NCBI GenBank assembly: GCA_963716205.1
Contig: OY970290.1
Coordinates: 108,906-172,905 of the forward strand
Source of the DNA: an uncultured bacterium
GTDB lineage: Bacteria > Patescibacteriota > Minisyncoccia > Phycocordibacterales > GWA1-40-21
Direction: 5' to 3'
DNA: 64,000 nucleotides
A model generated the notes under the pieces. It was given only the letters and a program-made list of their open reading frames with translations. It had not been told where the DNA came from and made no database searches. The position numbers and the translations under genes were made by a program. Positions 10,233 through 38,589 of this stretch are shown in pieces (position 1 is the first letter of the stretch; each line of letters starts with the position of its first letter).

Positions 10233-13645
<3,413 letters not shown>

Positions 13646-13747
13646 AATTTAAAAAGTCACGTTCGCATGTTTTAACCTGTTATGTGAAATGAATTCAAAA
13701 AATATTTTTTTGAGTGATTTTCACAGTAGTTTGAGTTGAATTTTTTG

Positions 13748-13858
13748 TTCTGGTGCTTTGTCGCGGGTGTTACACCTGATCTCATTCCGAACTCAGCAGT
13801 TAAGCCCCGTTGAGGCGATGATACTCTCTCTGAAGGGGAAAGTAGCTAGGCGCCGGAA
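13748..13858 (+). rRNA. rrf: 5S ribosomal RNA
   Basis: CCTGATCTCATTCCGAACTCAGCAGTTAAGCCCCGTTGAGGCGATGATACTC matches the conserved 5S helix II-III/loop C region. It lies about 100 nt after the 23S 3' end. Confidence 0.8.
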
Positions 13859-15872: not shown

Positions 15873-15911
15873 CACTCTTGATAATTTGTTTCTGATATTT
15901 TACAATATACA

Positions 15912-18900
15912 GTGATGAGACTGCAAAAAACATACAGATATACTGCATTTTCGCTGTTCGCTTTGTTTGTTTTTTTGCTTGCTTCCCGCTATGTTTCCGC
16001 TACTATTTATAATCCCGGTGAGACGCTCAATCCTGATTGCATAATGGGATCGAGTAATTGCGGAGTGGATCTTTTTTCTTCATTTATTCCTTATACCGGA
16101 GCGACAACGACCATCGATCTCAACAGTCAATTACTTACCAATGTCAGTGCTTTGAATGTTACAAGTACGACAACAATCGGTCAATCGGTCCTTATAACTT
16201 CTGGAAATCCTGATGGAATCGGTACCTCCTCTCAAGATACCGGAAGTAATTTACTTGCAGAAGGAAGTATTTATGATTTTCATATTTACTCTTATAGAAT
16301 GGTGAATGGTGTACAAGTTTTTTCTCAAAACTACACGGACATTCCATTTACTGATGATAATCTTGGCGGAACTTATAGTATTGGATTGACGTGGGACACG
16401 GTGCCGGGAGTGAGCGGATATAGAGTGGTAATCGTTCGAGATGACGAGGATGCTTATTACAGCGATCATTCAATAGATACTACAAATGATACGATTGAAT
16501 ATGATGGACTTACCGATGTTAATCCGACCAGTAATGTAAGCCCGTCTTCTTATGTGTATTCTTCCGGCGGTTTTTTACAAGTTGATGGTTCAGGCAGCAT
16601 AGCAGGCAATGTAACCATCAATAATGATCTTACGAGCGCGACAACAAAACCGGCGACCGCTCTGACCGTTTCAGGGACAATTTTTAATGATATTGGCAAT
16701 TCATCCCAGATTTCTCAGATCGCCACCACATCTGTTGGAAATGATCCGCAAGGAATTGCTATTTCCGGCAAATATTTATATGTAACGAATCAAAATGATA
16801 ACACCTTGTCTGTTGTTAATATTTCGGATCCTCATCATCCAATACAGATTGCCACAACTTCTGTTCCCAATGGTCCCAATCATATTGTTGTTTCAGGTAA
16901 TTACTTATATATAGGTCTTGATGGAGGTTCCGGTCACATTCCCACGTGTACCTCCGGAGAAGATTGTGTAGCTATTATAGATGTTTCAAATCATTTTTAC
17001 CCAATAATAACCGCTATTGTTAATGTCGGGGAGGGTCCATACGATATCGCTATTTCTGGAAAATATCTTTATGCGGTTAATAATGTTGGCCACGCCATCT
17101 CTATAACAGATATTTCAAATCCTTATAATCCTTTTAACATCGCCTCCTTATCTGTTGGAAACACACCAAACGGTATTGTTATATCCAGTCACTATGCTTA
17201 TATAACTGACACAAATAACAATGATATTTATACTGTTGATATTTCAAATCCGTATCATCCAGTGCAAATTGCCACAACCTCGGTTGGAAATAATCCTTTA
17301 GGTGTTGCGATTTCAGCTCCATATCTTTATGTAGTTAATGAAAGTGACAATGATATTTCTATTGTTGATATTTCAAATCCGTATCATCCAGTGCAAATTG
17401 CCACCACTTCCACGTTATTTGGTACTTCAATTGGCGGTGATCCTGAAAATATTGTTGTCTCTGGCCGATATGCTTATGTAACGAATCCAATCGGTAATAC
17501 TTTCTCGGTTATAGATGTTTCGAATCCTTATTATCCGATACCGATTGCTGATACTATAGTCGGAAATTCTCCAAATAATCTTGCTGTTTCAGGAAAATAT
17601 GGCTATACAGTTAATACAAATGACGGTACCATTTCAGTCATTGATCTTGGAGGTATTGATACAGGGAATCTTTCAGCCGGTGCACTTGAAGCAGGAAATA
17701 TAAATGTCGACAATAATATTGATGTTGCGGGTTCCGTAAATATCGGCACTGCGCTTTCTGTTGGAGCTGGAGGAATTCTTTCCAACGGAGATCTTTCGGT
17801 AAACGGCACAACCACCACTTCAGGCTTGAAGATTTCAAATCTTTCAAACACTTTCCTTGCAGTTGACGCAGATGGAAATGTTATAGCTGCTTCATCATCG
17901 TTTTCACGTGTTTTTATTTACGCTTCAAGTTTGCCAGGTATTCATGACAATTCAAACCTAACAACTGGTGGTGGTACGGACGATACTGCGGTTTTGCAAT
18001 CAGCCATTAATAATATTTCTTCATACGGCGGCGGAACACTCGTTATTGACGGTGTTTTTCTTGTTTCTGGTTTGGTCGTTCCAAGCAATATCACGATTGA
18101 AGGCCTCGGATGGAATACGGGCTTCTATCGATCAAACTATGCCGATGTTCCGATTATCAGAAATGCAGACCCGTCGACCACTACAGTTATGGACAAAAAC
18201 ATTCAGATGATCAACTTTGCCGTAAACGCCAACGGAGGTAATCAAAATGGTTGCCCGCTTTTGACTGAGGGTGATTACTTCGTCCAAGGTATTGCCATGT
18301 ATGGCGTAGATAATGTAACCCTCGATAATTTGCATTTCATTAATACCAACGAAGTCGTCAGCAATTTCACTGGTGCTATAGCGGGTTGTAGTGCAGATAA
18401 CGACTCAAATTATAATTACGCGTTTTTCTTTAGTAACTGGTCTAATATTACCGTTGAAAACAGTTATATTGAACAAGGTATGCTTTCCGGAAATGATGGA
18501 ATACATTTTATCGGCTCAGGAAATAACGCAATCATCAAAAATGTAAGAGGTTACAGCGGTGATGATTTCATAGCTTTTAATAGCAGTGATTATCATGACT
18601 ATTCAAGTCCTAATTCCCCTAGCTGGGTTATTGAGGATGGTCCACAATCAAACATTTTGGTTGATGGAGTTAACCTTCAGAATTCAACAGAAGGAATTTC
18701 TTTCTTGAGTGGTTACGATATCTCAAATGTTCGTGTCGAGAATATTACAGGTACAACGACTGCAGAAACCATACATTTCTGGAACTGGTATGGCGGTAGC
18801 GGTTCAGTCAAAGATATTATTTTTGACAATGTGAATGCTGTGAGCACAGGAGATTATGTTTTTAAGATGGAAGTCGGCTCGAGAATTGATAACATGCAAA

Positions 18901-21122
18901 TTTCAAATTCTAGATGGGAAAACCAAATAGCGAACGGTCCATCATGGATAGGTGTTGATGGGACTGTTATTAATGATTTGCAAATAAACAATATGATCGT
19001 TGATGAGCCAACAACCGGAACGGATGCAGAGTCTTTAATTGGTTTAGTTGGCAGCAGTGCCTCAATCGGATCACTTGCAATTAACGGTCTTGATTGGGAA
19101 CGACCATCGGGTTCGAATCCAGCGGGTTACTATATTCTATCCGGAAATGGAGCAATTAACAGCACATCTATTGCTGATATTAACATTCCGCTTTTGAGCG
19201 GAATTGCCGAAAGTACTTTAACTATATCTACAAATCAAACAACTATGGGTGGCAGTTTGGTTGTTCCTGGATCTGTTTCAATTGGTAACAATGCACTTTT
19301 TCTCCAAGCTGGAAGTATTATGTCAACAGGAACAATGGCAATTGATGCGACGAATATTGGTATCAATACAGCTAATCCCGCAAATACACTTGATGTGAAC
19401 GGTACATTCGATGTCTCTATTCCTTTAGTAACTGAAACAGGGGCAATGGTCAGTACAAACGGCACTGATACCGTCCTTACTTATAATGGTTCTGGAACAT
19501 TTGATCCGGGAGCGTATGTAAGCGAGGTACAAGTTTTAGTTGTCGGAGGAGGGGGCGGAGGAGGAGCAAAAAGAGCGGGCGGCGGCGGCGGCGGCGGAGT
19601 TATTTATGATGCAACACATTCAGTTACAAATAATATATATACAATTACAGTTGGGGCTGGCGGAGCCAGAGACACAACAGAAAATGGCGGCTCAAATGGA
19701 TCAAATTCCATATTTGATAATTTAACCGCTATTGGTGGTGGTGGAGGAGGAGGAGATAATTCTAATGATGGTCATAACGGTGGCTCAGGCGGCGGCGGTG
19801 GTGCGGATAATGGCATTGGTACCGGAGGTTCTGGCACTATTGGTCAAGGAAACAATGGGGGCAGTGGTAATACAGCTGGAGAAGGTGGCGGAGGTGGTGG
19901 TGGTGCAGGCGGGGTTGGGGTGGCCAGTACAACTTACGGCATGGGTGGAAATGGCGGAAACGGCATTTTAAACTCAATCACAGGAACATCTACTTATTAT
20001 GGAGGTGGCGGAGGTGGCGGAGGTTTCTCAAGTGGTTATGCTGGAGGTATTGGAGGAGAAGGCGGCGGCGGAGCCGGTTCAGAGTCAAGCGGAGTTTCTG
20101 GTTTGAATGGAACAGATGGCTTAGGTGGTGGAGGTGGCGGAGGAAATGATTCAGCTGATGGAGGGACTGGCGGCAGGGGTGTGGTAATTATTTCATATCC
20201 AACAAATGATACTGCGATCAAAGCACTTACTATTATGAATTCTGGCAACATCGGCATCGGCACCACCACACCATCAGCCACTCTAACCATCGTCGGCAAT
20301 CCTGCAAGTACAACATTAAGACTTGCGAATTTCGGCGCAGGAACTCTCATGACCGACAGTCTTGGAAACGTCTACGACAATTCCGATGAACGATTAAAGA
20401 ATATTATCGGTACCTCAACCATCGGTCTTAACGAACTCGAAGGATTAACTCCCATCAACTACTATTGGAATGCCACCTCCGGTCTTGATATGACAGATGA
20501 AAACACCGGCTTTTCCGCACAGAATGTAGAGCAATATATTCCAAACGCAGTCGCCACCGATACACGAGGCTACTTAACTCTTCAAGATCGTCCGATCATT
20601 GCGGCACTCGTCAATGCGGTGAAAGAAATCGGATCATTCATCAGTACTATTGGAAATGGTCTTGCTCACCTGACCGGTATTGCTATCGGCACTTCCGACA
20701 AACCGGAGGGGATTACGATGTATGACGAGTCTACGGGACAGCCGTATTGCGTTGTCATTAATAATGGAATTTTGGTTAATAATCCGGGTGAGTGTACGAC
20801 AAAAAATTCATCGGTAGGCACGTCAGTAAGCACGACTGAAAGTATCACTACTACTTCAACGGATGAAATACCGGTTGAAAATTCTTCATCAAGTTCTACT
20901 CCGGCGACAAACACTCCCGATATCGCGAGTTCAACTGAATCCGCCTCATCCACCCAATCCATAACGGGCACTGATGCTTCCACAACTCCACAAGTATCAA
21001 CAAGTACTTCTGCTCTTGCGACAACAACACTCGAAGATATCATCGCTACGACAACTGAAAACACGGCTTCGTCGTCCGATGAGACTGATGCAACGAATAC
21101 GGCAACAAGCACCGGATCGTAA
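15912..21122 (+). CDS. giant secreted fibre-like protein 1 (1736 aa)
   Basis: N-terminal hydrophobic signal/anchor plus a conserved IYNPGETLNPDC.MGSSNCG motif. About 8 repeats of ISNPYHPVQIATTSVGN.P.G.A.S..Y.YV (LVIVD/beta-propeller-like, nt about 16660-17620). A PF12708-like signature DDTAVLQSAINNISSYGGGTLVIDGVFLVSGLVVPSNITIEG (nt about 17980-19060). A poly-Gly region (nt about 19540-20170). A C-terminal module with [12 protein letters not shown]...[10 protein letters not shown]...[15 protein letters not shown]...[18 protein letters not shown] that matches the endosialidase / tail-fibre intramolecular chaperone (S74) pattern. A Ser/Thr-rich tail. Confidence 0.85.
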   Translation: MMRLQKTYRYTAFSLFALFVFLLASRYVSATIYNPGETLNPDCIMGSSNCGVDLFSSFIPYTGATTTIDLNSQLLTNVSALNVTSTTTIGQSVLITSGNPDGIGTSSQDTGSNLLAEGSIYDFHIYSYRMVNGVQVFSQNYTDIPFTDDNLGGTYSIGLTWDTVPGVSGYRVVIVRDDEDAYYSDHSIDTTNDTIEYDGLTDVNPTSNVSPSSYVYSSGGFLQVDGSGSIAGNVTINNDLTSATTKPATALTVSGTIFNDIGNSSQISQIATTSVGNDPQGIAISGKYLYVTNQNDNTLSVVNISDPHHPIQIATTSVPNGPNHIVVSGNYLYIGLDGGSGHIPTCTSGEDCVAIIDVSNHFYPIITAIVNVGEGPYDIAISGKYLYAVNNVGHAISITDISNPYNPFNIASLSVGNTPNGIVISSHYAYITDTNNNDIYTVDISNPYHPVQIATTSVGNNPLGVAISAPYLYVVNESDNDISIVDISNPYHPVQIATTSTLFGTSIGGDPENIVVSGRYAYVTNPIGNTFSVIDVSNPYYPIPIADTIVGNSPNNLAVSGKYGYTVNTNDGTISVIDLGGIDTGNLSAGALEAGNINVDNNIDVAGSVNIGTALSVGAGGILSNGDLSVNGTTTTSGLKISNLSNTFLAVDADGNVIAASSSFSRVFIYASSLPGIHDNSNLTTGGGTDDTAVLQSAINNISSYGGGTLVIDGVFLVSGLVVPSNITIEGLGWNTGFYRSNYADVPIIRNADPSTTTVMDKNIQMINFAVNANGGNQNGCPLLTEGDYFVQGIAMYGVDNVTLDNLHFINTNEVVSNFTGAIAGCSADNDSNYNYAFFFSNWSNITVENSYIEQGMLSGNDGIHFIGSGNNAIIKNVRGYSGDDFIAFNSSDYHDYSSPNSPSWVIEDGPQSNILVDGVNLQNSTEGISFLSGYDISNVRVENITGTTTAETIHFWNWYGGSGSVKDIIFDNVNAVSTGDYVFKMEVGSRIDNMQISNSRWENQIANGPSWIGVDGTVINDLQINNMIVDEPTTGTDAESLIGLVGSSASIGSLAINGLDWERPSGSNPAGYYILSGNGAINSTSIADINIPLLSGIAESTLTISTNQTTMGGSLVVPGSVSIGNNALFLQAGSIMSTGTMAIDATNIGINTANPANTLDVNGTFDVSIPLVTETGAMVSTNGTDTVLTYNGSGTFDPGAYVSEVQVLVVGGGGGGGAKRAGGGGGGGVIYDATHSVTNNIYTITVGAGGARDTTENGGSNGSNSIFDNLTAIGGGGGGGDNSNDGHNGGSGGGGGADNGIGTGGSGTIGQGNNGGSGNTAGEGGGGGGGAGGVGVASTTYGMGGNGGNGILNSITGTSTYYGGGGGGGGFSSGYAGGIGGEGGGGAGSESSGVSGLNGTDGLGGGGGGGNDSADGGTGGRGVVIISYPTNDTAIKALTIMNSGNIGIGTTTPSATLTIVGNPASTTLRLANFGAGTLMTDSLGNVYDNSDERLKNIIGTSTIGLNELEGLTPINYYWNATSGLDMTDENTGFSAQNVEQYIPNAVATDTRGYLTLQDRPIIAALVNAVKEIGSFISTIGNGLAHLTGIAIGTSDKPEGITMYDESTGQPYCVVINNGILVNNPGECTTKNSSVGTSVSTTESITTTSTDEIPVENSSSSSTPATNTPDIASSTESASSTQSITGTDASTTPQVSTSTSALATTTLEDIIATTTENTASSSDETDATNTATSTGS
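17805..17895 (+). repeat. connector module (A/L)[10 protein letters not shown](K/N)[13 protein letters not shown](D/N)GNV(I/V)A, copy 1 of 3
   Basis: The same 30-35-aa module recurs at 23440..23555 and 24610..24725 inside giant protein 2. DNA identity is partial; codon usage differs. Confidence 0.6.
20251..20723 (+). repeat. 473-nt block encoding the intramolecular-chaperone module, copy A
   Basis: Almost identical to 25851..26323. The core (about 20385..20608 versus 25985..26208) is identical as far as I can read. The flanks differ only by synonymous third-position changes. Confidence 0.85.
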
Positions 21123-21178
21123 TTGATAATCTGATTTTTCTGTTCTATAATACATGTGAGTATTGCCAAGATTTTCAC

Positions 21179-24100
21179 ATGAACAGCAAACAAAAATTTC
21201 TTCAAACAAAGAGATTACGATACGCACTCTATATAGTGTTTTCGCTTTTATTTGTATTTTCTCTTCAAAGAGCTTTTGCTGATATTTACGCTCCGGGAGC
21301 GACGCTTAATCCGGACTGCACCATGGGTTCGGCAAATTGCGGGATAGATTTCAGTCTTTCTTCAAGTTCAGAACCTCTTTTTCTCGCAGCTTCTTCATCC
21401 CTTCTTTCTACCACGTCTGCTTCCGCACTGTATGTTCCATATACCGGAGCGAATCAAAACATTGATATTGGAACAAATAATTTGCTTGGAGACAATGTTC
21501 TTACTCTTCAATCTCCAAACGGATTTGCGTTTTCAGGAAACGCGACCGATAGTTTGGCGTTTGATTTGAATAACAGTGAAGTATTTTCGACTTTTAATAA
21601 TAGCAGTACAAACGCGAACGGCACGATTCAAGTTAATCCGGGTGACTTTGAAGCAAATTTTAACGATGGTTCAGGGAACAATGGAAATTTAGAGGTTTCA
21701 AATACCGGTGCCAATATAGATTTTTCTGATGGGAGCAATGGCAACGGAGGTTTCAGTTTAAATTCAGACGGAATGGATTATGGTTTTGGCAGTAGCGGCG
21801 GCGGAGGGGGTTTTGAAGTAAGCCCGGCATATTTTAGTTTTGATTCCGGTGACAGCAACAGTGATGATGTTGCTATTAACGTAGACAGCAGTGAGAGCTA
21901 CTCTTCATTTAATAATGGCAACGGAGCAAGTGGAAATCTTTTTGTTAATCCGGGTGACTTTGAGGCAAATTTTAACGATGGTTCAGGAAATTCCGGCAGT
22001 TTGAATGCCGCAAACAGCGAATTTGATTATCATGCCCAGACAAGCAACGGCATCGTTTCTGGTTTTGGAGACAATCAATCCAACTTTTTTATTGAAGACG
22101 CGAGCGGTACTAATAATTTCTTCATCGATCCGAATACGAGCAAAGGAAATACCATTCTCTCATCCGCGGGGAATATTGATTTTACTTCAAATGTAAGTAT
22201 TGGATCAATGATCAATACTAGCTCGAATGATAGCGTAAGCACCAGTTCAATATTAGGAATTCTCACTCCATCGGGGGCGTATACCGCTTTCGGAGATTCA
22301 ATCACGAATGGTTCGGGAGGATCACAACAATCTAATGCATACGTCAATTTGATATCCACAGATTTGGGAGTTACCAATCTGGTCAATTATGGATATCCGG
22401 GAGATTTTGCCTGCAATGTGGCGACGGAACAAGTTTTTCCGAATGAAAATCCGAATAATACTTCCAATCCCATTTATACTTTGATGGTAGGCACGAATGA
22501 AGCTATCAATAAAGGTGCGGGATCATACGAATCAGTATATGAAGCATGCGATCAAGCATCGCTTGCATGGCTTGCTGTTCCATCAGAGAATAAAGTATTC
22601 GGTACAAGCAGTTCAGTCGTACTTGCCGGATCATGGACTAATAGCAATACCTATACAACCGGCAGAGGCACATACCCAACCGTGGGAATCCAATCATCAA
22701 CCAACGGATCGGTGGCAACATTTCCGATCACGACGACCGGCGGACCAATTTATATTTGGTATCGTATTATTGATGGCAATGGCGGAACATTCACATACCA
22801 GCTTGATGGTGGATCGGCGGTATCAGAAAATGCATTTACCAATCCGGAAGTGGATGATAATAACAATGGCAATCAAGGCATTGCGCTTGCGAGAATCACA
22901 GGAGTTTCAGCCGGTTCCCATACTATTGCAATCACGGTTACTTCAGCCACCAATTCCGGCAATCTCGTGCCTATCATTGCGGTCGGTACTGCGCCGAGTA
23001 GTATTTCTTCCGGTTCACCGAAAGTTTTTCCTAGCGGCTTGATATATTATCAGGATGACGAGCTTTCAGCCTCAACTGCGGCATATAATGCTGACGCGCT
23101 TGCCGATGCAGATTTGCTTGCGGACGACGGTCTTCCCATTTATCCGGTCAATGTAAGAAATTATTTTACTATCGCATATGATGTTTCCGGAATATTCGGC
23201 GGACCGCATCCGAATGATCTCGGACACTCTCTCATACGAGATGCTTTTGAAGCGGAGATGCTGCAAGTCGCTGAGGATCTATCGACATCAAGTGAAAACA
23301 GTCTTTCTCTTCCATCCGTTGCATTTCAAGTATCTACCACAAGCAGTGCGGATGGTGTTGCCGATTTTATTTCATCTTCCGGACAGTCCGCACTCTATAT
23401 TGGAGCCGATGGAAATATCAGTATCGGCACCACCACTCCAACCACAGCGCTTTCTGTCATCGGCACGACAACGACAAGCGGTTTGAATATTTCAAATCTT
23501 TCAAACACTTTTCTCGCCGTTGATGCAAATGGAAATGTTGTTGCGACGACGAGTCCATCAGGCGGATCATCCCAATGGGCAACAACAAGTGTTGGTGTTG
23601 GTTATGATGTCCCGGGCATTTATTATAATATCGGCAATGTCGGCATCGGCACAACAAATCCGAACGATGAGCTTGTTGTTACCGGAACATCGACAACAGA
23701 TACCGTTGCATATTTTGGCGGTAATGCTGATATAGCTGGCAATGCTGTGATCGGTAATACAAACACTCTTGCTCAAGGTTTGTTTTTACTTGTCGGTCAC
23801 AGATACGCTCCTAATCTTCAGCAGATAAACATTGAGTCAAGCGATGACGGAATAAATTTCTCCGATTTTGAGCAAAATCCTATTTGGTCAAATCCTGACA
23901 ATGATTCTCCGGCCATTGCTGCTGCCCGAGACCCGTCCATTGTCTATTATCACAATATTTATTATATGGTTTATAGCGCAATACCGTATAATGGAGGCTT
24001 TGATTCGAATACTGTTTTTGGGCTGGCGACTTCTTCTGATTTGAAAAATTGGAATTTCGTCGGGGATATTTCCGTTACCTCAATCGGGACGGTGTATTGG

Positions 24101-26731
24101 ACATGGGCGCCTAGTTTGCTTGTTGATGCAAGTGGAAATTTGCACGTTTATGTTTCAGTTGCTCCTGATGGCAGCGATTCTACGTTCAGTATTTATGAAA
24201 TGCACCCGACAAATCCAAGTGCGACAACATGGTCTGTTCCAGCTCTCATGCTTGGAACAAATAAAATTGATGCGGATACAGTTTATAACAACGGAACATA
24301 TTATCTTTGGTATAAGAATGAAACGACAAAATATATCGAATATGCAACTTCTTCCTCGCCAACCGGCCCATTCACGGTGGCAGAGACAGGTAATTGGGCC
24401 GGGTGGGGAACAGGTTTTGAAGCTCCATGTCCGGTCCAGATCAGCGCCAATGATTGGAGAATTTATCTTGATGAATATCAGAACACGTCATTTATTCATT
24501 ACAGTGATTCATACGATAATTTTGCAACATGGACTGCTCCATTGCCGATATCCACGCCAATTCCTGATTTGGACAGTGTAAGCGTCATACGATTACGTGG
24601 TATTACCCCAAGCGCCGCGCTTTCTGTCATTGGTACAACCACGACATCAGGTCTCAATATTTCAAATCTTGCGAACGGTTTTCTTGCCGTTGATGCAAAT
24701 GGAAATGTTGTTGCGACGACATCAAGCGGTTCTCAATGGACAACAAATGGCTCCAATATTTATTATACGACTGGTAATGTCAGCATTGGCACCTCAACTC
24801 CCGGTTCCGCTCTTAGTGTGGATGGCGCTATTGATGCAACATCAATATTCAGTTCCAGCATAGGACTTTTGGGAAGTTCAATGCAACCGCTCACCGCAGA
24901 TATTATTGTCGTTGGCGGTGGTGGAGCAGGCAGTTCGGGCGGTGGCGGTGGCGGTGGTTTTATTGCCACCTCAACGGAGATTTCAGATGATCCGTATGTG
25001 GTAACGGTTGGAAACGGCGGAAGTGTTACCCATGGAAATGGTTATGATTCTATTTTTGGATCATTTGATGCGGTGGGAGGAGGAGCGGGAGCGGGTATTA
25101 ACTCGGGGAGTGGAGCTAATGGCGGTTCGGGTGGTGGCGGTGGTTCTACTTGCGGCGGTGGCCCAGTATCCGCTGGTGGTTTGGGAACAACAGGTCAGGG
25201 AAATAATGGTGGAAGTGCAGCTGCCGGAAATTGCATTGTGCCTTATACATCAGGCGGCGGCGGCGGAGCTGGAGCGGCGGGTCAAAATTCAACAGCAACC
25301 ACGAACGGAAACGGTGGAATCGGAACTACAAGTTCGATTACGGGAACCGTTACTTATTATTCAGGCGGCGGCGGCAGCGGAGATTATTACGGAACAGAAC
25401 CGTTCGGAACAGGCGGTCTTGGCGGCGGCGGCAATGGCGGAAATCCGGCAACGGCAGGAACGGCAAACACCGGCGGCGGCGGCGGCGGAACTATCAACGG
25501 CGGCACATCAGGCAATGGAGGTTCCGGTGTCGTTATAATAAAATACTTAACTTCCGCAGATGGCGATGGAACCGGAGGTATAATCACTCATGTCGGCGGT
25601 TACACCATTCATACATTTACATCAAGCGGAATATTCACACCTCCGCCCCCAAGTCCGGTAATATACAATATTACCTTAGACAACAATTTGTTCAGTTTTG
25701 AAAACGGAATCTCAGCACCGAATCTTGCTGTCGGCACAACATCGTCACCGATCACCCAATTCGATGTTTATGGTTCAAGTACAAATGATCTTGCCAACTT
25801 TGCTTCCTCTTCGGGACAATCCATTCTTTATATTACTTCGACCGGTAAAGTCGGCATCGGCACCACCACACCATCAGCTACTCTAACTATCGTCGGCAAT
25901 CCCGCAAGTACAACATTAAGACTTGCCAATTTCGGCGCAGGAACTCTCATGACCGACAGTCTTGGAAATGTCTATGATAATTCTGATGAACGATTAAAGA
26001 ATATTATCGGTACCTCAACCATCGGTCTTAACGAACTCGAAGGATTAACTCCCATCAACTACTATTGGAATGCCACCTCCGGTCTTGATATGACAGATGA
26101 AAACACCGGCTTTTCCGCACAGAATGTAGAGCAATATATTCCAAACGCAGTCGCCACCGATACACGAGGCTACTTAACTCTTCAAGATCGTCCGATCATT
26201 GCGGCACTTGTCAATGCGGTGAAAGAAATCGGATCGTTCATCAGTACTATCACGGACGGTATTGCACATCTCACCGGTATTGCTATCGGCACTTCCGACA
26301 AACCGGAAGGGATTACGATGTATAGTCCGAGTGGAAATGCATTTTGTATACAAGTTTCAGATACCGGACTGATTCAAAGTTCATCGGGAGAATGCAGCAA
26401 TGCAACCTCGACAATTTCTACCGCTTCAGTTGTTTCTTCAATCAGTCAAGCTTCTGATTCTTCAAATACATTAGCTACATCCACAGCTTCAACATCGGAT
26501 AATGTATTGCAGTCATCATCAACATCGGATGATGCAAGTTCTTCCGTTGCAACAACTTCCGATCAAGATACACCGGCAACTTCAACAAATACTACACTAA
26601 CTTCACCTATTGCAACAAGCACATCGGATCAAGCGACAACAACTTCCGATACTGATATAATCGCAACAACGTCTGAAAGCGCGACTTCGCCATCTGATAC
26701 CACGGATGCCGCGACAAGCACAGGTCAGTAA
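21179..26731 (+). CDS. giant secreted fibre-like protein 2 (1850 aa)
   Basis: Same N-terminal motif ([22 protein letters not shown]). SGNH hydrolase blocks: [14 protein letters not shown] and NDLGH (nt about 22250-23250). A GH43-like five-bladed propeller: [23 protein letters not shown] (nt about 23820-24570). A poly-Gly region (about 24900-25560). An S74-like C-terminal chaperone module nearly identical to that of protein 1, followed by a Ser/Thr-rich tail. Confidence 0.85.
25851..26323 (+). repeat. 473-nt block encoding the intramolecular-chaperone module, copy B
   Basis: See copy A. The offset between the copies is exactly 5600 nt. Confidence 0.85.
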
Positions 26732-26739
26732 TTATTTTT

Positions 26740-28530
26740 TTGAATATGCGCATTACATTTTATAAATATTATTTTCTTTTTTTACTCTTCTTTTTTTTCA
26801 TTCCCGCAATTTCTTTTGCCAATACCGGTACAATCGGAAGCACAACAAATGCTGCATGGAGCAATGAAATCGGCTGGATAAATTTTGCGCCAACAAACGG
26901 GGGAGTAGTTGTGAACGATTCATCTTTGACTGGTTCGGCATGGTCTCAAGATTACGGCTGGATTAATTTTGCCCCGACGAACGGCGGCGTGACAAATGAC
27001 GGACAAGGGAATCTCGGAGGAACCGCATGGGGGGATAATGTTGGATGGATTAGTTTTTCTGGAGTGACAATCAATACGACAACAGGAAAATTTTCAGGAC
27101 AGGCTACGGGCACAATTATTGGAACACTGACATTTGATTGTACCAATTGCGATGTTGCAACTGATTGGAGACCGACAACGGTTACTCCACCACCGTCATC
27201 TGGTGGAGGCGGAGGTGGAGGCGGAGCGCCGGGAGCTGGCGGAACAGGTGGCGGCAGTTCTCCATCTCCGACACCTACCCCTTCTCCAACCCCAACACCT
27301 TCTCCAACTCCATCTCCGACACCTACCCCTGAACCTACACCAACCCCAACTCCTGTTCCATCTCCAACACCCTCGCCAACCCCATCCCCCACACCAACAC
27401 CAACGCCAACCCCAACTTCCGGACCAAGTATAACTTCTGTTATTAGCGGATCAATTTCATCCGTCGGTTCATTTATTACTTCAGCCGCAAATGGATTCAT
27501 TACCAATTTAAATACTATTTATAACAACGCTCCGGCCTCGATAAAAAATACCGTTACTGTTACGAAACAATTTGTCCAGACAAAAACCGGTTCAGCTATA
27601 ACAAAAACAATTTCAACAATCGGTGTTGTGACGGGCATTTCACTTCCCGTTGCTGTTGCAGCAACTTCATTTTCAGATTTATGGCTTATTTTTGTAAGAA
27701 TGTTCGGATTATTCTTTGAAATATTTGGTATTCGCAAAAAATCCCGTCCATGGGGCACGGTATATGATTCCATCACCAAGCGTCCGCTTGACCCCGTTCT
27801 TGTCACTCTCATCAATGTTGAAACAGATAAGCAGATCACTTCAGCCATTACGGATATCGATGGGCGATACGGATTTCTCGTTTCTCCCGGCACATATCGG
27901 ATTGAAGCCAGGAAAACCGATTACACATCTCCATCGCTCAAGATGAAAGGCAGATCATTTGATGAAGTCTATAATGATCTGTATTTTGGAGAAAATATAA
28001 CTGTTGTAAATGAGGAAGAAACAATTACCAAAAATATTCCTATGGATTCAATATCGTTCAACTGGAATGAATTTGCCAAGACAAAAATGGATGTGAATAA
28101 ATTTATTAAAGGCAGAGACATTACCTGGGCCCGCATTTCCAAATTCCTTTTTGTCATCGGAGCTCTCGTTGCACTCATTGCCGTTCTCATTGTTCCAGAA
28201 CCGTATAATTTTATTATCGCCGGATTCTACATTCTCGCATATATATTGAACTATGTGGTATTTACGACGAAGAAAGCCGGCACTCTGATAGAAAAATCCA
28301 CCAATTTGCCCCTCTCATTTGCCATTATCAATATTTTTCGAGAAGGTGAAACGGCTCCGTTCACTAAGAAAATCGCTGACAAGTTTGGCGATTATTACGC
28401 GCTGGTTCCCAAAGGCAGATATTATTTGAAAGTTGAAAAGAAAAATGACGATGAGACCTATACAGCTCTTTTCCAGACATCACTTTTTGATGTGAAAAAT
28501 GGAGTGATCAATGTCAATATTACGGGATAA
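26740..28530 (+). CDS. polytopic surface protein: signal peptide, three Trp-rich repeats, a Pro/Thr/Ser linker, transmembrane segments and a carboxypeptidase-regulatory-like beta-sandwich
   Basis: Repeats [36 protein letters not shown] and [30 protein letters not shown] linker. Several hydrophobic helices. The segment [57 protein letters not shown] resembles CarboxypepD_reg. Confidence 0.6.
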
Positions 28531-28543
28531 TACAAAGACTATT

Positions 28544-29026
28544 TTACGGGGTCACATCGTAGCAGAGATCTGGATTTGAAGGTCCAATCGAACCGGAAAC
28601 ACAATTATCCGCTTGCCCGTTGAATCCGACATTAATATGTTTTGCGCTGGTAAGAACTGCATTTGCCGTACTTGAGAGCGCTATGCCCAAATGATACGAA
28701 GCGCAATCTGAAGAACAAACAATAGTATTTGTTATGTCGGTGCTCTGATATTTTATATTGGGATTTATCGACGGGATGTATTTTGGCACAAGGGCGGTGA
28801 TTAAATCAGTATAAGAACTTCCCGTCGGATAATATCCGTTGTCGGTAAAATACAACTGTAATGCTTTTTGGACCTGCTGCAAATCTTCTATTTTTGCGGA
28901 GTCATTTCCTTTATTTGTTGCGGAGCTTAACATAAAAAGCGCGACCGCGGAAAGGACGGCGATGATACCAATCACAATGAGCAATTCTATCAAAGTGAAT
29001 CCGTTTTTTTGTTTTTGATGGAACAT
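28544..29026 (-). CDS. type IV pilin / pseudopilin (class III signal peptide)
   Basis: The ATG at 29026 gives MFHQKQKNGFTLIELLIVIGIIAVLSAVALFML, the prepilin peptidase motif G|FTLIE followed by a hydrophobic helix. The track ORF extends upstream to 29092. Confidence 0.75.
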   Translation of the reverse strand: MFHQKQKNGFTLIELLIVIGIIAVLSAVALFMLSSATNKGNDSAKIEDLQQVQKALQLYFTDNGYYPTGSSYTDLITALVPKYIPSINPNIKYQSTDITNTIVCSSDCASYHLGIALSSTANAVLTSAKHINVGFNGQADNCVSGSIGPSNPDLCYDVTP

Positions 29027-29060
29027 GAATATTTTGTTACATTGATATGCCCGTATTCTA

Positions 29061-30209
29061 TCACATTGAATACATCGCGATAGTCTTTTCAATCATAGTT
29101 TTCAGACTGAATTCGAAGTCGATTTTTTTCTTCAGTTTTTTGCCGAAAATTTCTATTTTTTTGCGGTTTTCCAAAACGTATTCTATCGCCCGCTGTATTT
29201 CTTCTGAACTTTTCGATCGTATGAGGATTCCTGTTTCGTTATTTTCTACAATTTCCGGTATGCCGCCGACATTACTGGCAATGATAGGCAGTTCGGCGGC
29301 GCCGGCTTCAAGAAGTGCATAGGGAAGCGCTTCAGTCACGGAAGTTAGGGTGAACATATCAAAAGCTTTCAGATACATTGAAGCAGATTCGATTCTTCCG
29401 AGTAAGAATATTTTTTGTTCGACTTTCAATCTGCGGATCAATTGTTCCAAATTTTTCTTTTCCTCGCCGTCTCCAATGACGGTGAAAACAACATTCGGTA
29501 TTTTTGCAATCGCCTTCATGGCGAAGTTCAAACCTTTTGTTTTATGAAGCTCGGATATCGTGCCGATCCAGACCGGATTTTTTGAAAATATTTCCGCGGC
29601 GCTTGGATTTTCGCTAAGTATTTTTTGCGACAAGAACTCCCGGGCCAAAGTTTTCTCTTCAAAATCAATGGGTCGCAAGCCATTCCGTATGACAATCATT
29701 TTTTTATTCCATGGTTTGCCGATTTGATCATATGTTATTTTTGATACGGCGACCGTCTGGTGGGCAAGGAGGATAGTAAGAATATGGAAAAATCTCGCAA
29801 ATATTTTTTGCCACCACGGTCTATCTTCATTAAAAGCCCAGCCGTGCCCAGTGAAAATTATTTTTTTAATACCAACGATCCTTCCGACAAACGCTCCCAT
29901 ACCGCCCATTTTGGAGCTGTTGAGATGGATGATATCCGGTTTTTCCTTTTGAAAAATATGGAAGAGCTCAAAAAATAATCCGAATTCTTTCAGTATGTTG
30001 ATATTCCGTTGTGAATTTTTCAGTGGAATTGTTTTAACTCCGGCTTCATCAAGCTTTTTTTTCAGCTCGCTGCTGCCGCCGAGAAGGACAGAGACCTCAA
30101 ACTGTTCTCTCGGAATATTCGTGGCAATGTCATAGACATATTTTTGCGCTCCACCCCAATTTGATTTGGTGATGCAGATGAAAACCTTCTTTTTCGACTG
30201 TTCGGTCAT
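29061..30209 (-). CDS. glycosyltransferase family 4 (GT-B)
   Basis: EALPYALLEAGAAELPIIASNVGGIPEIV is the E-x7-E GT4 motif. Typical length of 382 aa. Confidence 0.75.
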   Translation of the reverse strand: MTEQSKKKVFICITKSNWGGAQKYVYDIATNIPREQFEVSVLLGGSSELKKKLDEAGVKTIPLKNSQRNINILKEFGLFFELFHIFQKEKPDIIHLNSSKMGGMGAFVGRIVGIKKIIFTGHGWAFNEDRPWWQKIFARFFHILTILLAHQTVAVSKITYDQIGKPWNKKMIVIRNGLRPIDFEEKTLAREFLSQKILSENPSAAEIFSKNPVWIGTISELHKTKGLNFAMKAIAKIPNVVFTVIGDGEEKKNLEQLIRRLKVEQKIFLLGRIESASMYLKAFDMFTLTSVTEALPYALLEAGAAELPIIASNVGGIPEIVENNETGILIRSKSSEEIQRAIEYVLENRKKIEIFGKKLKKKIDFEFSLKTMIEKTIAMYSM

Positions 30210-30257
30210 GAGCTTCCATTATATAAAAAAAATGCTACAATTTCTAGCACATAATTT

Positions 30258-31610
30258 ATGCGTATTTTCAACAAAAAAGAGCCAATACTCCTTTTTCTGG
30301 GGGATATCATCATCTTTGCCGTTTCTTTAATGCTTGCTCTTTTGATACGCGGAGGGGATGATCTTTTTTGGAAGACATATCAGAATTATGTTCTGCCGTT
30401 TGCCATTATATTTCTCCTGTGGGCGCTGGTATTTTTCATTGCCGGATTGTATGACAAATATACAACGATTCTGAAAGACAAGATTTCCTCGACCATACTG
30501 AATGCCGAGCTCGTGAACAGTGCTCTTGCCATCGCATTCTTTTATTTGATTCCGTACTTCGGTATTACTCCGAAAACTTTGCTCTTTATTGATTTGGTCA
30601 TTACATTCATTCTTATCTATGGATGGAGGATTTACAGTCATCAGCTTTTCGGACTGAAAAGAAAAGAGCCGGCGATCATTGTCGGCTCGGGCGATGATAT
30701 GAAAGAGCTTGAAAAGGAAGTCAATGACAATCCACGATCCGAGTTGCAATTCGTTTCATCCATCGATCTCGACAAAATATCGGGAATTGATTTTGTCGAT
30801 GAGATTGCAGACAGGATATACGCCGAGCATATCGGCATCATTGTCATCGATCTGAAAGACGAGCGCGTGGAGCCGATCCTGCCGCATTTGTATAATCTGA
30901 TTTTTTCCGGTGTGCGGTTCATTGATATGTATAAAGTCTACGAGGATGTTTTTGATCGCGAGCCGCTTTCGCTTGTCCGCTACAATTGGTTTCTGGAAAA
31001 TCTTTCATTCTCGCCAAAATTTACCTATGATACACTCAAACGTTTTGCGGATATTATATTCGGACTTGTCGGAGGAATCGTTTCTCTCGTTTTTTATCCG
31101 TTTGTTATTGTCCTGCTTTTATGCGACGAAGGACATGGTATTTTCAGCATTCAGGAGAGAATCGGCAAGGACAATAAGATCATAAAAATGTACAAATTCC
31201 GCACGATGAAAATCGCTAATGACGCGGGCAAGTGGAATACCGGCGAGAAAAATTACGTGACGAAGATCGGTAAATTTTTGAGAAAGACTCGTCTTGATGA
31301 ATTGCCCCAGCTTTGGAATCTGCTCTTCGGTGATGTTTCCCTTATCGGTCCACGACCGGAATTTCCCGATGCAGTGAAAACGTATGAAGAGGAAATTCCG
31401 TATTATGGTATTCGACACCTCATCAAACCGGGTCTTTCCGGCTGGGCAATATTGCATATAGCCAAGGATGCTCATCACGGTATCGGCATCAGCGAAACAA
31501 AAGAAAAACTTTCTTATGATTTGTATTATGTAAAAAATCGTTCATTTATGCTTGATGTTGTGATTACTTTGAAGACAATCAAGAAATTATTGTCGATTGC
31601 AGGAGAATAA
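30258..31610 (+). CDS. polyprenyl-phosphate sugar-phosphate transferase (WbaP/bacterial sugar transferase family)
   Basis: N-terminal transmembrane helices. The C-terminal domain contains KFRTM...LDELPQLWNLLFGDVSLIGPRPE, the bacterial sugar transferase signature. Confidence 0.8.
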   Translation: MRIFNKKEPILLFLGDIIIFAVSLMLALLIRGGDDLFWKTYQNYVLPFAIIFLLWALVFFIAGLYDKYTTILKDKISSTILNAELVNSALAIAFFYLIPYFGITPKTLLFIDLVITFILIYGWRIYSHQLFGLKRKEPAIIVGSGDDMKELEKEVNDNPRSELQFVSSIDLDKISGIDFVDEIADRIYAEHIGIIVIDLKDERVEPILPHLYNLIFSGVRFIDMYKVYEDVFDREPLSLVRYNWFLENLSFSPKFTYDTLKRFADIIFGLVGGIVSLVFYPFVIVLLLCDEGHGIFSIQERIGKDNKIIKMYKFRTMKIANDAGKWNTGEKNYVTKIGKFLRKTRLDELPQLWNLLFGDVSLIGPRPEFPDAVKTYEEEIPYYGIRHLIKPGLSGWAILHIAKDAHHGIGISETKEKLSYDLYYVKNRSFMLDVVITLKTIKKLLSIAGE

Positions 31611-31656
31611 AAATCCTGTTGCAAAATATCGAAAAATAGTTATACTAAAACGCATT

Positions 31657-33045
31657 ATGATCAAGAGAAGATTCTGGGCAGTTGTCCTCATACTGGTTGC
31701 CGCACTTATCGGATATTTTGTCTATGCAACGCAAAAAAATCCTTCATCGAATTTTCCATTCCGGCTCGGTCTTGATCTCGACGGCGGAACAGAGCTTGTC
31801 TACAAGCCGGATCTTTCAAGCACTTCGACAGTTCCAACGGATTTGGCGAGTTCAATGAGTGTTCTTCGCGATGTTATTGAGCGAAGAGTCAATACGTTCG
31901 GCGTTTCCGAGCCGGTCGTTCGTGTTGAGCAAGTAGGCTTTACCGGTTCATCCGACAACGAACAGCTGATCGTCGATCTTCCCGGAGTGACCAATATCGA
32001 TCAAGCGGTTGCTATGATCGGCGCCACACCAACACTTGATTTCCGACTTCTCGCATCAAGCTCCACCAATTTTACCGAAGCTCAATTGCAGGCGGAAATC
32101 GCATCGACGAGCATGGACAGCGTTTTTATTCCGACCGGTTTGACCGGAGAATATCTAGAGAGTTCACAGCTTCAGTTTGATCCGACATCCGGCGAGCCGG
32201 AAGTTTCGCTTCAGTTCAATTCAAAAGGCGCGGATCTTTTTGCAAGCATTACCAAAAACAATGTCGGCAGAAAACTTGCGATTTTCCTCGACGGATACAT
32301 GGAATCTTTGCCGACCATTCAGGAAGAAATCGACGGCGGACAAGCGGTCATCTCCGGCGGCTTTACCGGAAGTACCGGCATCAAAGATGCGCAAAGCTTG
32401 GTGAACAATCTTAATCTTGGCGCTCTTCCGATTCCGATTCAGCTTATTTCAACGCAGACGGTCGGCGCATCGCTCGGACACGACGCAGTCCAAGCTTCGA
32501 CGAAAGCCGGCATCATCGCGTTTATTGTCATTGCAATTTTCCTCATTTTGATTTACCGGTTGCCGGGGTTGCTCGCGGTCATCGCACTTTGTATTTACAC
32601 GATCATCAACTTGGCGATTTTCAAATTGATTCCCGTGACGCTCACTTCCGCCGGCATTGCCGCATTCATTCTTTCCGTCGGTATGGCAGTCGATGCAAAC
32701 ATTCTTATTTTTGAAAGAATGAAAGAAGAATTCAGAAGGGGACGGGAAATCGGCGACGCGGTCTCCGAAGGTTTCCACAGAGCATGGACATCGATCCGTG
32801 ATTCGAATATTTCCTCGATGATTACAGCAGTCATTCTTTATATGTTTTCAAGCACGTCAGTTGTAAAAGGTTTTGCACTCGTCTTCTTCATTGGCGTTGC
32901 CGTTTCCATGTTCACTGCGATCACCGCATCAAGAACTCTGCTTCTTGCGATCAAACACGATCACGCGGGCAAATTTCTAAAATGGCTTTTTGGCGGTTCA
33001 ATGAAAAATCCGGTTAGCACAGAAATTAACACGAACAAAAAATAA
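31657..33045 (+). CDS. secD: protein-export membrane protein SecD
   Basis: SecD periplasmic-domain motif RLGLDLDGGTELVYK and C-terminal transmembrane bundle. The track ORF starts at 31597 and overlaps the previous gene. ATG 31657 follows a TATACT box by about 10 nt. Confidence 0.8.
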   Translation: MIKRRFWAVVLILVAALIGYFVYATQKNPSSNFPFRLGLDLDGGTELVYKPDLSSTSTVPTDLASSMSVLRDVIERRVNTFGVSEPVVRVEQVGFTGSSDNEQLIVDLPGVTNIDQAVAMIGATPTLDFRLLASSSTNFTEAQLQAEIASTSMDSVFIPTGLTGEYLESSQLQFDPTSGEPEVSLQFNSKGADLFASITKNNVGRKLAIFLDGYMESLPTIQEEIDGGQAVISGGFTGSTGIKDAQSLVNNLNLGALPIPIQLISTQTVGASLGHDAVQASTKAGIIAFIVIAIFLILIYRLPGLLAVIALCIYTIINLAIFKLIPVTLTSAGIAAFILSVGMAVDANILIFERMKEEFRRGREIGDAVSEGFHRAWTSIRDSNISSMITAVILYMFSSTSVVKGFALVFFIGVAVSMFTAITASRTLLLAIKHDHAGKFLKWLFGGSMKNPVSTEINTNKK

Positions 33046-33046
33046 C

Positions 33047-33982
33047 ATGTTTATCGTCAAACACAGAAGAATATTTTATACGTTCTCACTTCTGCTTGTC
33101 GCCGCATCAATAGCTGCGCTCTGCACGTGGGGAATGTCATTCGGCATTGATTTTACCGGCGGTTCATCCGTTCAATTCCAATATGCAAACGGCAGACCAA
33201 GTATTGCCGCTGTTGAATCAGAAATCAATTCGCTCACATTTACTCCGTCCATCAAAGGCGAATATTCACTCGTGCCAAGCGGTACAGATAGCTATACTTT
33301 GGATTTAAGAACGATTACCGATACCGAACGATCGCTTTTGACCGGTGTTCTTTCAAGCGACGCTTCAAATACTCCGACCATTAGTCAGTTCAGCTCGATC
33401 GGTCCCGTGCTCGGACAAGAAGCCGCGTCAAAATCAATCATGGCGATTATTCTCGTGATTCTTTGTATCGTTCTTTTCATTACTTTTGCATTCAGGAAAG
33501 TTTCAGAGCCGGTCTCAAGCTGGAAATACGGCATGGTCTCGATCATCGCGCTCTGTCACGACATCATTATTCCGACAGGCGTATTCATAGTCCTCGGACA
33601 TTTCTTGCCGGGCTATCAGATCGATACACTTTTTGTCACCGCTATCCTTGTCATCCTCGGTTTCTCGATCCATGATACCATCGTCGTGTTTGATAGAGTC
33701 CGCGAAAATCTCAAAAACAATCACAGCGTGAAAAATCCAAAACCATTTGATGAAGTTGTTGGTGCGTCCATCAGTCAGACATTTGTGAGATCCATCAACA
33801 CTTCGCTCACCACACTTCTTGCTATTCTTGTTGTGTATCTCGTCGGTCCTGTCGCGACGCAGCATTTCGCTCTCGCGCTTCTTGTCGGTATTTTCTTCGG
33901 AACATATTCTTCGATCTTCATCGGTTCAAACTTGCTCGTGACTCTTCAGAAAATGCAGGAGAAGAAAGGAGGGAAGAAATAA
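33047..33982 (+). CDS. secF: protein-export membrane protein SecF
   Basis: 311 aa in the SecF family, immediately after secD. Confidence 0.8.
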   Translation: MFIVKHRRIFYTFSLLLVAASIAALCTWGMSFGIDFTGGSSVQFQYANGRPSIAAVESEINSLTFTPSIKGEYSLVPSGTDSYTLDLRTITDTERSLLTGVLSSDASNTPTISQFSSIGPVLGQEAASKSIMAIILVILCIVLFITFAFRKVSEPVSSWKYGMVSIIALCHDIIIPTGVFIVLGHFLPGYQIDTLFVTAILVILGFSIHDTIVVFDRVRENLKNNHSVKNPKPFDEVVGASISQTFVRSINTSLTTLLAILVVYLVGPVATQHFALALLVGIFFGTYSSIFIGSNLLVTLQKMQEKKGGKK

Positions 33983-33995
33983 TTAAAAAAGCCAT

Positions 33996-34032: not shown

Positions 34033-34075
34033 TAAATAAGCCTTTTTTATTAAACTAGACTAACTCAAGAATTGC

Positions 34076-38580: not shown

Positions 38581-38589
38581 ACTTTTATA

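Follow-up and report, generated by a model that had tools for sequence, protein, structure and literature searches.

In MyRF, the phage K1F endosialidase (endoNF), T5 pb1 and the Bdellovibrio bacteriovorus fibre Bd3182, a serine and the lysine five residues further on form a dyad that cuts the chain after the trimer has folded (PMC8326128, PMC4690869, PMC10769870). In the phage S74 proteins, an arginine in the stalk of the neighbouring chain serves as a folding sensor (PMC8326128, PMC4690869), and cleavage of T5 pb1 unmasks its receptor site (PMC4690869). The S74 domain is common to otherwise unrelated phage fibres, according to the title of Schwarzer et al. 2007 as it appears in PMC4690869. 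Bd3182, a member of the MAT fibres, self-cleaves at S782 (Caulton et al. 2024, PMC10769870). Gene conversion, shuffling and paralogues are unmentioned in that paper, and the words 'duplication' and 'recombination' occur in its methods sections only. The present analysis concerns two adjacent giant genes, A and B, that encode S74 fibre-like proteins in an uncultured, ultra-small bacterium of the Patescibacteriota. The genes lie in a stretch of 64,000 nucleotides (nt), here called the window, from contig OY970290.1 (positions 108,906 to 172,905; assembly GCA_963716205.1). They are divergent over most of their length and share a nearly identical 480-nt cassette, which was probably copied from one gene into the other by gene conversion.

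The cassette occupies 20244–20723 in gene A (residues 1445–1604) and 25844–26323 in gene B (residues 1556–1715), on the plus strand in both cases, and comprises 160 codons. The original prediction, made from the sequence of the window, described a near-identical block of 473 nt present in both genes 5600 nt apart. Pairwise alignment with MAFFT and blastn agrees with this description. The segments 20251–20723 and 25851–26323 align without gaps, with 21 mismatches and 95.56% identity, and form direct repeats in the same reading frame with a start-to-start spacing of 5600 nt. The limits were drawn at 20244 and 20723 because the in-register identity profile changes sharply there, exceeding 90% within one 30-nt step at about 20244 and falling after 20723. 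The full block is thus 7 nt longer than first noted. No other repeat in the window is as long or as similar, and the other paralogue families there reach 70–79% identity over 70–224 nt.

The longest exact run between the two copies is 224 nt, the length predicted for the identical core. It extends over 20385–20608 in A and 25985–26208 in B, from the codon after the predicted cleavage serine to the start of the long C-terminal helix. The 24 mismatches of the full block involve all four bases and are chiefly C/T and A/G transitions at third codon positions. Between 20253 and 20723, 15 codons differ synonymously only, and the amino acid replacements are confined to one patch at 20651–20672 (26251–26272 in copy B). 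The patch contains 10 mismatches in 22 nt, with one codon altered at all three positions. It changes Gly-Asn-x-Leu in A to Thr-Asp-x-Ile in B (GNGL and TDGI) and lies in the predicted C-terminal helix (model residues 130–162). The flanks of the core had been thought to differ only at synonymous third positions, which is wrong for the 3′ flank given these three replacements. Among the differences between 20279–20384 and 25879–25984, six of eight third-position changes have C in A and T in B, and the other two are T/C and G/C. The first difference on the 3′ side (20609) has the same C (A) to T (B) direction.

Outside the block, the in-register identity of A and B is about 33%, which is the random level. 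The genes are therefore diverged elsewhere in this respect, as had been proposed, but several parts remain recognisably homologous. These are the signal-peptide region (40% amino acid (aa) identity), a stalk unit (79–81% nt identity over 90 nt), the Gly-rich domain and the last 40 codons (72% nt identity).

The block encodes the end of the stalk and an S74 chaperone. The PF13884 profile scores 35.0 bits in A and 34.7 bits in B, above the cut-off of 22. A predicted Ser-Lys autoproteolytic dyad is encoded at 20382–20399 (25982–25999 in copy B), in the codons Ser1491-Asp-Glu-Arg-Leu-Lys1496 of A and S1602 to K1607 of B. The Ser, Asp and Lys residues of this SDxxxK motif are each at least 90% conserved among 33 homologues, and GFSAQ and an 11-residue signature are also present. 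The Ser-to-Lys spacing of five residues equals that of S587/K592 in MyRF and S911/K916 in endoNF (PMC8326128). An AlphaFold2 monomer model of the module has a predicted local distance difference test score (pLDDT) of 90–96 in the core. It contains the long helix at residues 130–162, whose counterpart in solved chaperone domains builds the trimeric coiled coil, and a small β-sheet domain built from the Cys-loop segment that follows the block. The best Foldseek match of the model is the ICA domain of MyRF (7dc3), with E = 5e-5, a probability of 1.0 and a target-normalised template modelling (TM) score of 0.64, and the next is endoNF (3gw6). A sequence search of the Protein Data Bank (PDB) with the module gave a weak MyRF match only (E = 0.75), so that a fold search was needed. 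On its Pfam score, SDxxxK motif and fold, the module belongs to the Peptidase_S74 chaperone family, and the label 'chaperone module' given to it earlier is appropriate.

The first part of the cassette (20244–20381) corresponds to A residues 1445–1490, the last 46 residues of the predicted mature fibre. It includes Arg1470 (20319–20321) and contains nine synonymous and two nonsynonymous differences between A and B. Most close homologues also have an arginine at this position, 21 residues before the serine. The stalk end has a pLDDT of 52–67 in the monomer model. The block is plausibly a self-contained unit that combines the chaperone with the piece of stalk on which it acts. The module had been placed at the C terminus. 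It does lie near the end of the fibre, but about 133 diverged residues, comprising a Cys loop and a Ser/Thr tail, come after it.

Synonymous (dS) and nonsynonymous (dN) divergence between A and B was estimated per segment by the Nei-Gojobori method (NG86). The Gly-rich domain on the 5′ side of the block has a dS of 2.1 and a dN of 0.57. In the 5′ part of the block (20244–20384) these values drop to 0.29 and 0.02, a dN/dS of about 0.07. Both are 0 in the core (20385–20606), where none of the 52 synonymous sites is changed (0/52). They rise again to 0.41 and 0.047 in the 3′ part (20607–20723). The tail on the 3′ side has a dS of 1.4 to saturated and a dN of 0.57. For the whole block, dS is 0.17 and dN 0.017. 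With 21 of the 160 codons variable, a stretch of 74 unchanged codons has a permutation P of 1e-5. In the collinear alignment, the amino acid identity of A and B is 49% in the Gly-rich flank, 97% in the block and 34–41% in the tail.

Constraint at the protein level is insufficient to account for this profile because it cannot hold synonymous sites, at which the core has a dS of 0 and the flanks 1.4–2.1. A fresh fusion is disfavoured by the collinear, anciently paralogous sequence that flanks the block on either side. Since the core has a dS of 0 and the rest of the block about 0.3–0.4, there are at least two layers of homogenisation, an older one over all 480 nt and a recent one over the core of about 224 nt. 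The exchange had originally been called recent as a whole. That description fits the 224-nt core, but not the remainder of the block, which dates from the older event.

Among related sequences, three contigs were informative (L001, L074 and L075). In L001, one gene of 2688 aa encodes an A-like propeller, and the next is homologous to the 596-aa open reading frame (ORF) that stands after gene B in the window. L074 contains a shorter, frameshifted fibre gene, also followed by a homologue of this ORF. L075 is syntenic with the window on the downstream side. In L074, the frameshift splits the B-type fibre gene (9708–10333) between SDERLK and the rest of the chaperone, which means that the gene is a pseudogene or that the long-read assembly is in error there. 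In L001, the giant gene is preceded by a 390-aa ORF without a match to FtsW of the window, and no synteny is claimed on that side.

The phylogenetic affinities of the block and of the sequence after it are incongruent. The tail was compared over the 36 residues that follow the block, and counts are given as residues matched over residues compared. In this tail, A and B match at 10/35 residues (29%), whereas the matches are 21/36 for A and L001, 16/34 for A and L075, and 21/35 for B and L074. Fisher tests against the A–B pair give P = 0.017 for A–L001 and P = 0.015 for B–L074. In the chaperone core, A and B match at 76/76 residues, compared with 40/76 for A and L001 (P = 1e-13), 29/43 for A and L075, and 58/76 for B and L074 (P = 2e-6). 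A thus groups with L001 and L075 in the tail and B with L074 (58–60% identity for A–L001 and B–L074), whereas A and B are nearest each other in the block. The cross-type blastn alignments (A to L074 and B to L001) end at the 3′ edge of the block, whereas same-type alignments continue into the tail.

The orthologues provide a control for the conservation of the module. Block and tail are 58% and 58% identical between A and L001 (P = 1.0), and 71% and 60% identical between B and L074 (P = 0.23). For A and B, the corresponding values are 97% and 29% (P = 8e-19). The orthologues are equally similar in block and tail. The module is therefore not intrinsically more conserved, and its near-identity in A and B comes from exchange inside this genome. 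The last 38 residues of the block are A-type-like in both copies, matching A-type relatives at 30–32/38 positions and L074 at 25–26/38. The core is only slightly nearer to L074 (33/43) than to L075 (29/43), and carries no clear signal of direction.

These data are best explained if A and B are old tandem paralogues and gene conversion has overwritten the 480-nt cassette of one gene from the other at least twice. A probability of roughly 0.8 is assigned to this reading. It agrees with the original proposal that conversion or recombination homogenises only the chaperone module, which is borne out by the contrast in dS, the incongruence with orthologues, the clustering of differences and the break of an independent assembly described below. 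Synonymous divergence along the two genes is near saturation in the flanks, 0.17 in the block and 0 in the core. The process is ordinary gene conversion between paralogues, limited to one domain cassette, and no new kind of system.

Mechanistically, RecA-type homologous recombination between the misaligned tandem genes would copy a tract one way without crossover. The older event would have spanned the whole cassette, after which strong purifying selection let only synonymous changes and one small patch build up. A later event would then have re-homogenised about 224 nt. Each exchange would restore identity and ease the next, so that the cassette evolves in concert while divergence keeps the remainder from pairing. 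Both copies would stay functional through purifying selection on the chaperone (dN/dS about 0.07). A crossover between the direct repeats would delete or duplicate 5.6 kb and give a chimera of A body and B tail, rather than the swap of head domains that had been suggested. No such A/B chimera was found among the relatives examined.

At the protein level, the product is expected to trimerise on the chaperone after secretion to a putative surface location, and to fold its stalk. By analogy with the endosialidase, T5 pb1, MyRF and Bd3182, self-cleavage would occur at Ser1491 in A or Ser1602 in B through the Ser-Lys dyad. Cleavage would release the chaperone together with the tail, leaving the stalk end at the distal tip with the Gly-rich domain behind it. 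The parts that stay diverged possibly determine specificity. Upstream of the cassette they comprise the propeller or hydrolase-like domains and the phage-fibre-like Gly-rich domain, and downstream of it the Cys loop and Ser/Thr tail.

An alternative is that the duplication, or the perfect identity of its core, was made by the assembler or by polishing with mis-mapped reads. The window was compared with an independent contig (L073; Logan, run ERR11563597), which was reached because it encodes an identical product of a gene further downstream. Look-ups for the exact products of gene B, of FtsW and of the predicted partial tail of gene A gave no match. L073 covers 26278–34310 of the window at 99.95% identity, and its other end lies just before the 16S gene. 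The last 31-mers common to A and B start at 26273–26277, and L073 begins at 26278, the first 31-mer unique to copy B. A graph with k = 31 must stop there, so both copies with their diagnostic bases are present in the raw short reads. L073 carries the B-specific base at 26308. The contig of a relative, L075, likewise begins inside its own chaperone core. Both copies in the window are in frame within long intact ORFs, and the differences in the flanks are almost all synonymous, which is a biological signature. Exact identity across a repeat is also what polishing cross-talk between copies would yield, and the window is not error-free, since it differs from L073 by three clustered 1-nt insertions or deletions. 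The repeat is probably not an assembly artefact, and this explanation is considered improbable. Over the 8 kb compared, the sole differences are one mismatch and these three indels, which lie within 9 nt (27224–27232 in the window, 947–952 in L073; net +3 nt, in frame) and affect a Gly-rich coding stretch, where they may stem from a local misassembly or represent a micro-variant. A third account, in which the module has stayed unchanged by constraint since an ancient duplication, would fit the many chaperone residues that are nearly invariant across phyla and the low dN/dS of the block. It is refuted by the synonymous sites and by the orthologues, whose block is no more conserved than their tail. 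The core also has no RNA-structure signal (z = 0.22), and the probability left to constraint alone is negligible.

The module might instead have been acquired recently by A, B or both from a third source, such as another S74 gene or foreign or phage DNA. S74 genes are often multi-copy, with 13 in Bdellovibrio (PMC10769870) and five in one 20-kb Leptospiraceae locus, and the composition of the block seems mosaic, since its 3′ part is A-type and its core has no clear affinity. A third copy is absent from the window, however, which is the 64 kb of the genome that is visible. The best matches in genome, metagenome and phage collections have 55%, 40% and 39% amino acid identity, respectively, and none is near-identical. 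A protein-guided scan of the JGI metagenomes found nothing nearer than 40%, and the exact 35-mer of the core had 0 matches in them. The two copies are adjacent direct repeats, which is the arrangement most prone to exchange, and an outside donor would still have entered a pre-existing homologous site by conversion through homologous recombination. A shared donor is thus regarded as unlikely, though somewhat less so than an artefact. Programmed variation was also considered, in which a diversity-generating retroelement would use the copies as its template and variable repeats, or a site-specific shuffling system would use them as cassettes. The repeat does sit in genes for putative surface proteins. 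Patescibacteria carry diversity-generating retroelements that target surface proteins. The retroelement was rejected on the mismatch pattern, which is not adenine-specific and involves all four bases, mostly as C/T changes at third positions. Both copies are in frame in full-length genes and lack inverted repeats. No reverse transcriptase or recombinase was present among the neighbouring genes scanned, a scan that stopped short of every ORF in the window. Programmed variation can be practically discounted.

Several points weigh against gene conversion between A and B. The relatives are only 50–76% identical in the module, one of them (L074) is frameshifted, and their modules have possibly been converted too. 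The tail comparisons rest on about 35 residues. A further donor copy is possible elsewhere in the genome, beyond the visible 64 kb, and polishing cross-talk could exaggerate the exact identity of the 224-nt core. As for the module itself, the arginine lies 21 residues before the serine, whereas endoNF and T5 pb1 have it at −14, and autocleavage and trimerisation of A and B are predicted from homology only.

Gene A (15912–21122, plus strand) encodes a protein of 1736 aa. Its signal peptide and LVIVD β-propeller are followed by a stalk unit and then by about 520 aa that match no Pfam family. The Gly_rich_2 domain comes next, after which the chain continues through the stalk end into the S74 chaperone and finishes with a Cys loop and a Ser/Thr tail. 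Its Pfam matches are LVIVD (1.4e-25), Gly_rich_2 (4.4e-23) and Peptidase_S74 (1.8e-8). Gene B (21179–26731, plus strand) encodes 1850 aa and starts with a signal peptide and a domain resembling GDSL/SGNH hydrolases. Two stalk units follow, one on either side of a GH32N-like propeller, and lead to a Gly_rich_2 domain and an insert of about 77 aa. The stalk end with the S74 chaperone, the Cys loop and the Ser/Thr tail complete the protein. It matches Lipase_GDSL (30.2 bits), Glyco_hydro_32N (33 bits), Gly_rich_2 and Peptidase_S74 (2.2e-8). The signal peptides of both proteins are of the Sec type, as read from sequence, and the N termini have the motif Y-x-P-G-x-T-L-N-P-D-C in common. In the alignment, B has about 77 extra residues ahead of the block relative to A. 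The last 580 or so residues of A and B are collinear, with the Gly-rich domain, the block, a Cys-x15-Cys loop, a Ser/Thr-rich stretch and an end motif. In the 5′ part of gene B, a 76-nt direct repeat (21632–21707 and 21944–22019), 96% identical over its first 47 nt, forms an internal duplicated unit.

The Gly_rich_2 domain of A (19488–20198; about 24893–25546 in B) forms the 5′ flank of the cassette, has a polyglycine-rich fold resembling that of phage fibres and is 49% identical between A and B. Its model has a pLDDT of 92 and matches the fibre of cyanophage Pam3 (7ypx, 1.7e-6) and the Bxb1 tail tip (9d93, 3e-5) in Foldseek, with a weaker match to the glycine-rich ligand-binding domains of ALK and LTK. 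With 19380–20243 as the query, more than 3998 database homologues of Gly_rich_2 were retrieved, several of which have a type IV pilin-like N-terminal methylation motif. By sequence, the domain is displayed on pilin-like proteins and S74 fibres alike. The 3′ flank of the cassette (20724–21119; 26324–26728 in B) contains the Cys-x15-Cys loop, the Ser/Thr-rich stretch and the conserved end motif, and has A- and B-type orthologues in relatives.

The stalk unit occurs once in A (17778–17893) and twice in B (23435–23550 and 24605–24720), on the plus strand. The copies are 72–84% identical at the nucleotide level and 64–67% identical at the amino acid level in BLASTP between A and B. They carry the motif IGTTTP...L.V.G...N....L..D..GNV, as do the first 43 residues of the cassette, but no SDxxxK follows. 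The units may link domains or may be what is left of earlier gene ends. Each gene is preceded by a promoter-like site on the plus strand. TTGATA-17-TACAAT lies at 15878–15906 in the spacer upstream of A (10/12 in the consensus scan), and TTGATA-17-TATAAT lies at 21123–21151 in the 56-nt spacer upstream of B (11/12, the best site in the scan). These two best sigma-70-like matches of the 15.6-kb scan sit exactly in the spacers upstream of the two genes. They are suggestive only, and the scan overall did not exceed shuffled sequences (40 sites compared with 36.2).

The genes on the plus strand are, in order, 23S rRNA (10296–13646), 5S rRNA, an FtsW/RodA gene, gene A, gene B and the 596-aa ORF. 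A pilin-like gene and a GT4 glycosyltransferase gene on the minus strand come next, and then genes for a sugar transferase, SecD and SecF, 16S rRNA (34388–35907) and two tRNAs. The context is a bacterial chromosome and not a phage. A tail-fibre gene of a phage or prophage was rejected on these chromosomal neighbours and on the best phage matches of 29–39% aa identity. The closest homologues of the module and the syntenic contigs belong to Patescibacteria, including metagenome-assembled genomes (MAGs) of Kaiserbacteria and Saccharibacteria, and SecD of GCA_028865965.1 is 81% identical. The rRNA genes are not linked, and their order along one strand is unusual. 23S and 5S (10296–13858) come first, and about 20 kb of protein genes, A and B among them, separate them from 16S. 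Unlinked rRNA genes fit Patescibacteria. The 23S match spans 3351 nt against a model of 2925 nt and so includes about 430 nt of inserted sequence, with no ORF of at least 110 aa inside.

The 596-aa ORF (26740–28530, plus strand) contains a Pro/Thr-rich linker at 27260–27427 and has no significant match in Pfam or NCBIfam. In tblastn, homologues follow S74 fibre genes in four relatives: L001 (11198–13612), L074 (10570–11394), L008 (about 11250–11600) and L023 (about 11070–11429). Because they directly follow the fibre genes, the ORF likely encodes a conserved fibre partner. Further along the window, the GC content is 0.31–0.36 at 36000–46000 and 50000–58000, as against 0.42–0.48 in the rest. 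A LOOT RNA (RF03000) lies at 41194–41318. A run of minus-strand genes with weakly similar paralogues at 50–58 kb is possibly a glycan-synthesis island.

The S74 chaperones of phage tailspikes and fibres, such as those of the K1F endosialidase (3GW6) and T5 pb1, resemble the module of A and B in the PF13884 match, the SDxxxK motif, the predicted fold with its long C-terminal helix and the position directly after the stalk. A and B differ from them in being chromosomal, in having Sec-type signal peptides and in carrying about 133 residues after the module, which is terminal in phage. The conserved arginine of A is at −21 and that of the phage proteins at −14, and the nearest phage match is 29–39% identical. 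The S74 subgroup of MAT (mosaic adhesive trimer) fibres belongs to B. bacteriovorus, which itself lives on other bacteria. These fibres are also chromosomal, multi-copy and phage-fibre-like, with signal peptides, mosaic domains and an S74 module with SDxxxK, and Bdellovibrio genes are among the homologues of the module at 35–39% identity. However, the first 260 aa of A and B, compared by BLASTP with the Bdellovibrio-type fibres of L005, L006 and L033, gave no match to the N-terminal domain of about 130 aa that defines MAT. As this domain is undetected at the sequence level, membership was rejected and A and B are not filed as MAT. Unlike MAT, the patescibacterial proteins share the N-terminal motif Y-x-P-G-x-T-L-N-P-x-C, and A and B are larger, with propeller and hydrolase-like domains. 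The ICA domain of MyRF (7DC3) is the best structural match, with the same Ser-Lys spacing, but MyRF is a eukaryotic membrane-bound transcription factor with 22% identity and serves only as a reference for structure and mechanism.

Gene conversion is established as a cause of concerted evolution among bacterial paralogues, for example in the duplicated tuf genes and rRNA operons. The present case is similar in its tract of synonymous near-identity, in the diverged homologous sequence that bounds it and in its incongruence with orthologues. Unlike the classic cases, which concern whole genes, it involves only one internal 480-nt cassette in genes that are otherwise saturated. T4-like phages have mosaic tail-fibre adhesins with glycine-rich motifs. 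Like these and the Pam3 and Bxb1 fibres, A and B have a polyglycine-rich domain beside a conserved cassette, that is, a variable binding part beside a constant assembly part. The match to the Gly-rich domain of A is at the fold level, and a binding function is inferred.

Module-limited similarity is also present in tandem S74 genes of other phyla, and the window is not unique in this respect. Eleven of 111 S74-bearing loci contain two or more modules within about 20 kb, and in several tandem loci the similarity of the copies is much higher within the module than next to it. Module identity at the nucleotide level is 82–89% in a Leptospiraceae locus (L011), 91–98% in a Bacteroidales locus (L030), 83% in a metagenome contig (L084) and about 82–91% in a Saprospiraceae locus (L046). 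The shared block starts 107–134 nt before the Ser codon in L011 (132–134 nt in three of four pairs), about 40–60 nt in L046 and 138 nt in the window. The window is the most extreme tandem case, with 93%, 99.6% and 89% identity over the three parts of the block and unalignable flanks.

It is conceivable, although doubtful, that the cassette is kept identical for a reason and not through neutral exchange. It might provide a shared chaperone that enables mixed A/B trimers, or the stalk end and S74 module might act as a standard recombination cassette. If mixed trimers form through the helix of the chaperone, which drives trimerisation, neighbouring fibre genes, each with its own promoter-like site, would give combinatorial fibres, and the helix patch, GNGL in A and TDGI in B, might keep the chains apart. 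If the cassette serves recombination, episymbiotic Patescibacteria would re-assort fibre bodies and tails, in a cellular counterpart of the exchange of host-range cassettes by phages. A matching 5′ boundary, about 130–138 nt ahead of the Ser codon, is seen in the tandem genes of L011, and that of L046 is nearer to the codon.

The finding does not overturn current understanding. It documents well a case of concerted evolution confined to one domain, in a bacterial lineage that is uncultured and host-dependent. It also shows where a constant assembly unit, made of the stalk end and the chaperone, meets the variable parts of the fibre, a distinction that helps in annotation and engineering. Short-read assemblies break inside the module, as in L073 and L075, and such genes are therefore probably truncated or missing in many MAGs. 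With its 480-nt direct repeat, the locus also provides its own substrate for deleting or duplicating 5.6 kb, which would produce chimeric fibres. Patescibacteria thus carry chromosomal phage-fibre-like proteins with a predicted self-cleaving chaperone, a design that Bdellovibrio uses in prey recognition. Since they have this design in common with the prey-recognition fibres, A and B are reasonable candidates for fibres that mediate attachment to the host.

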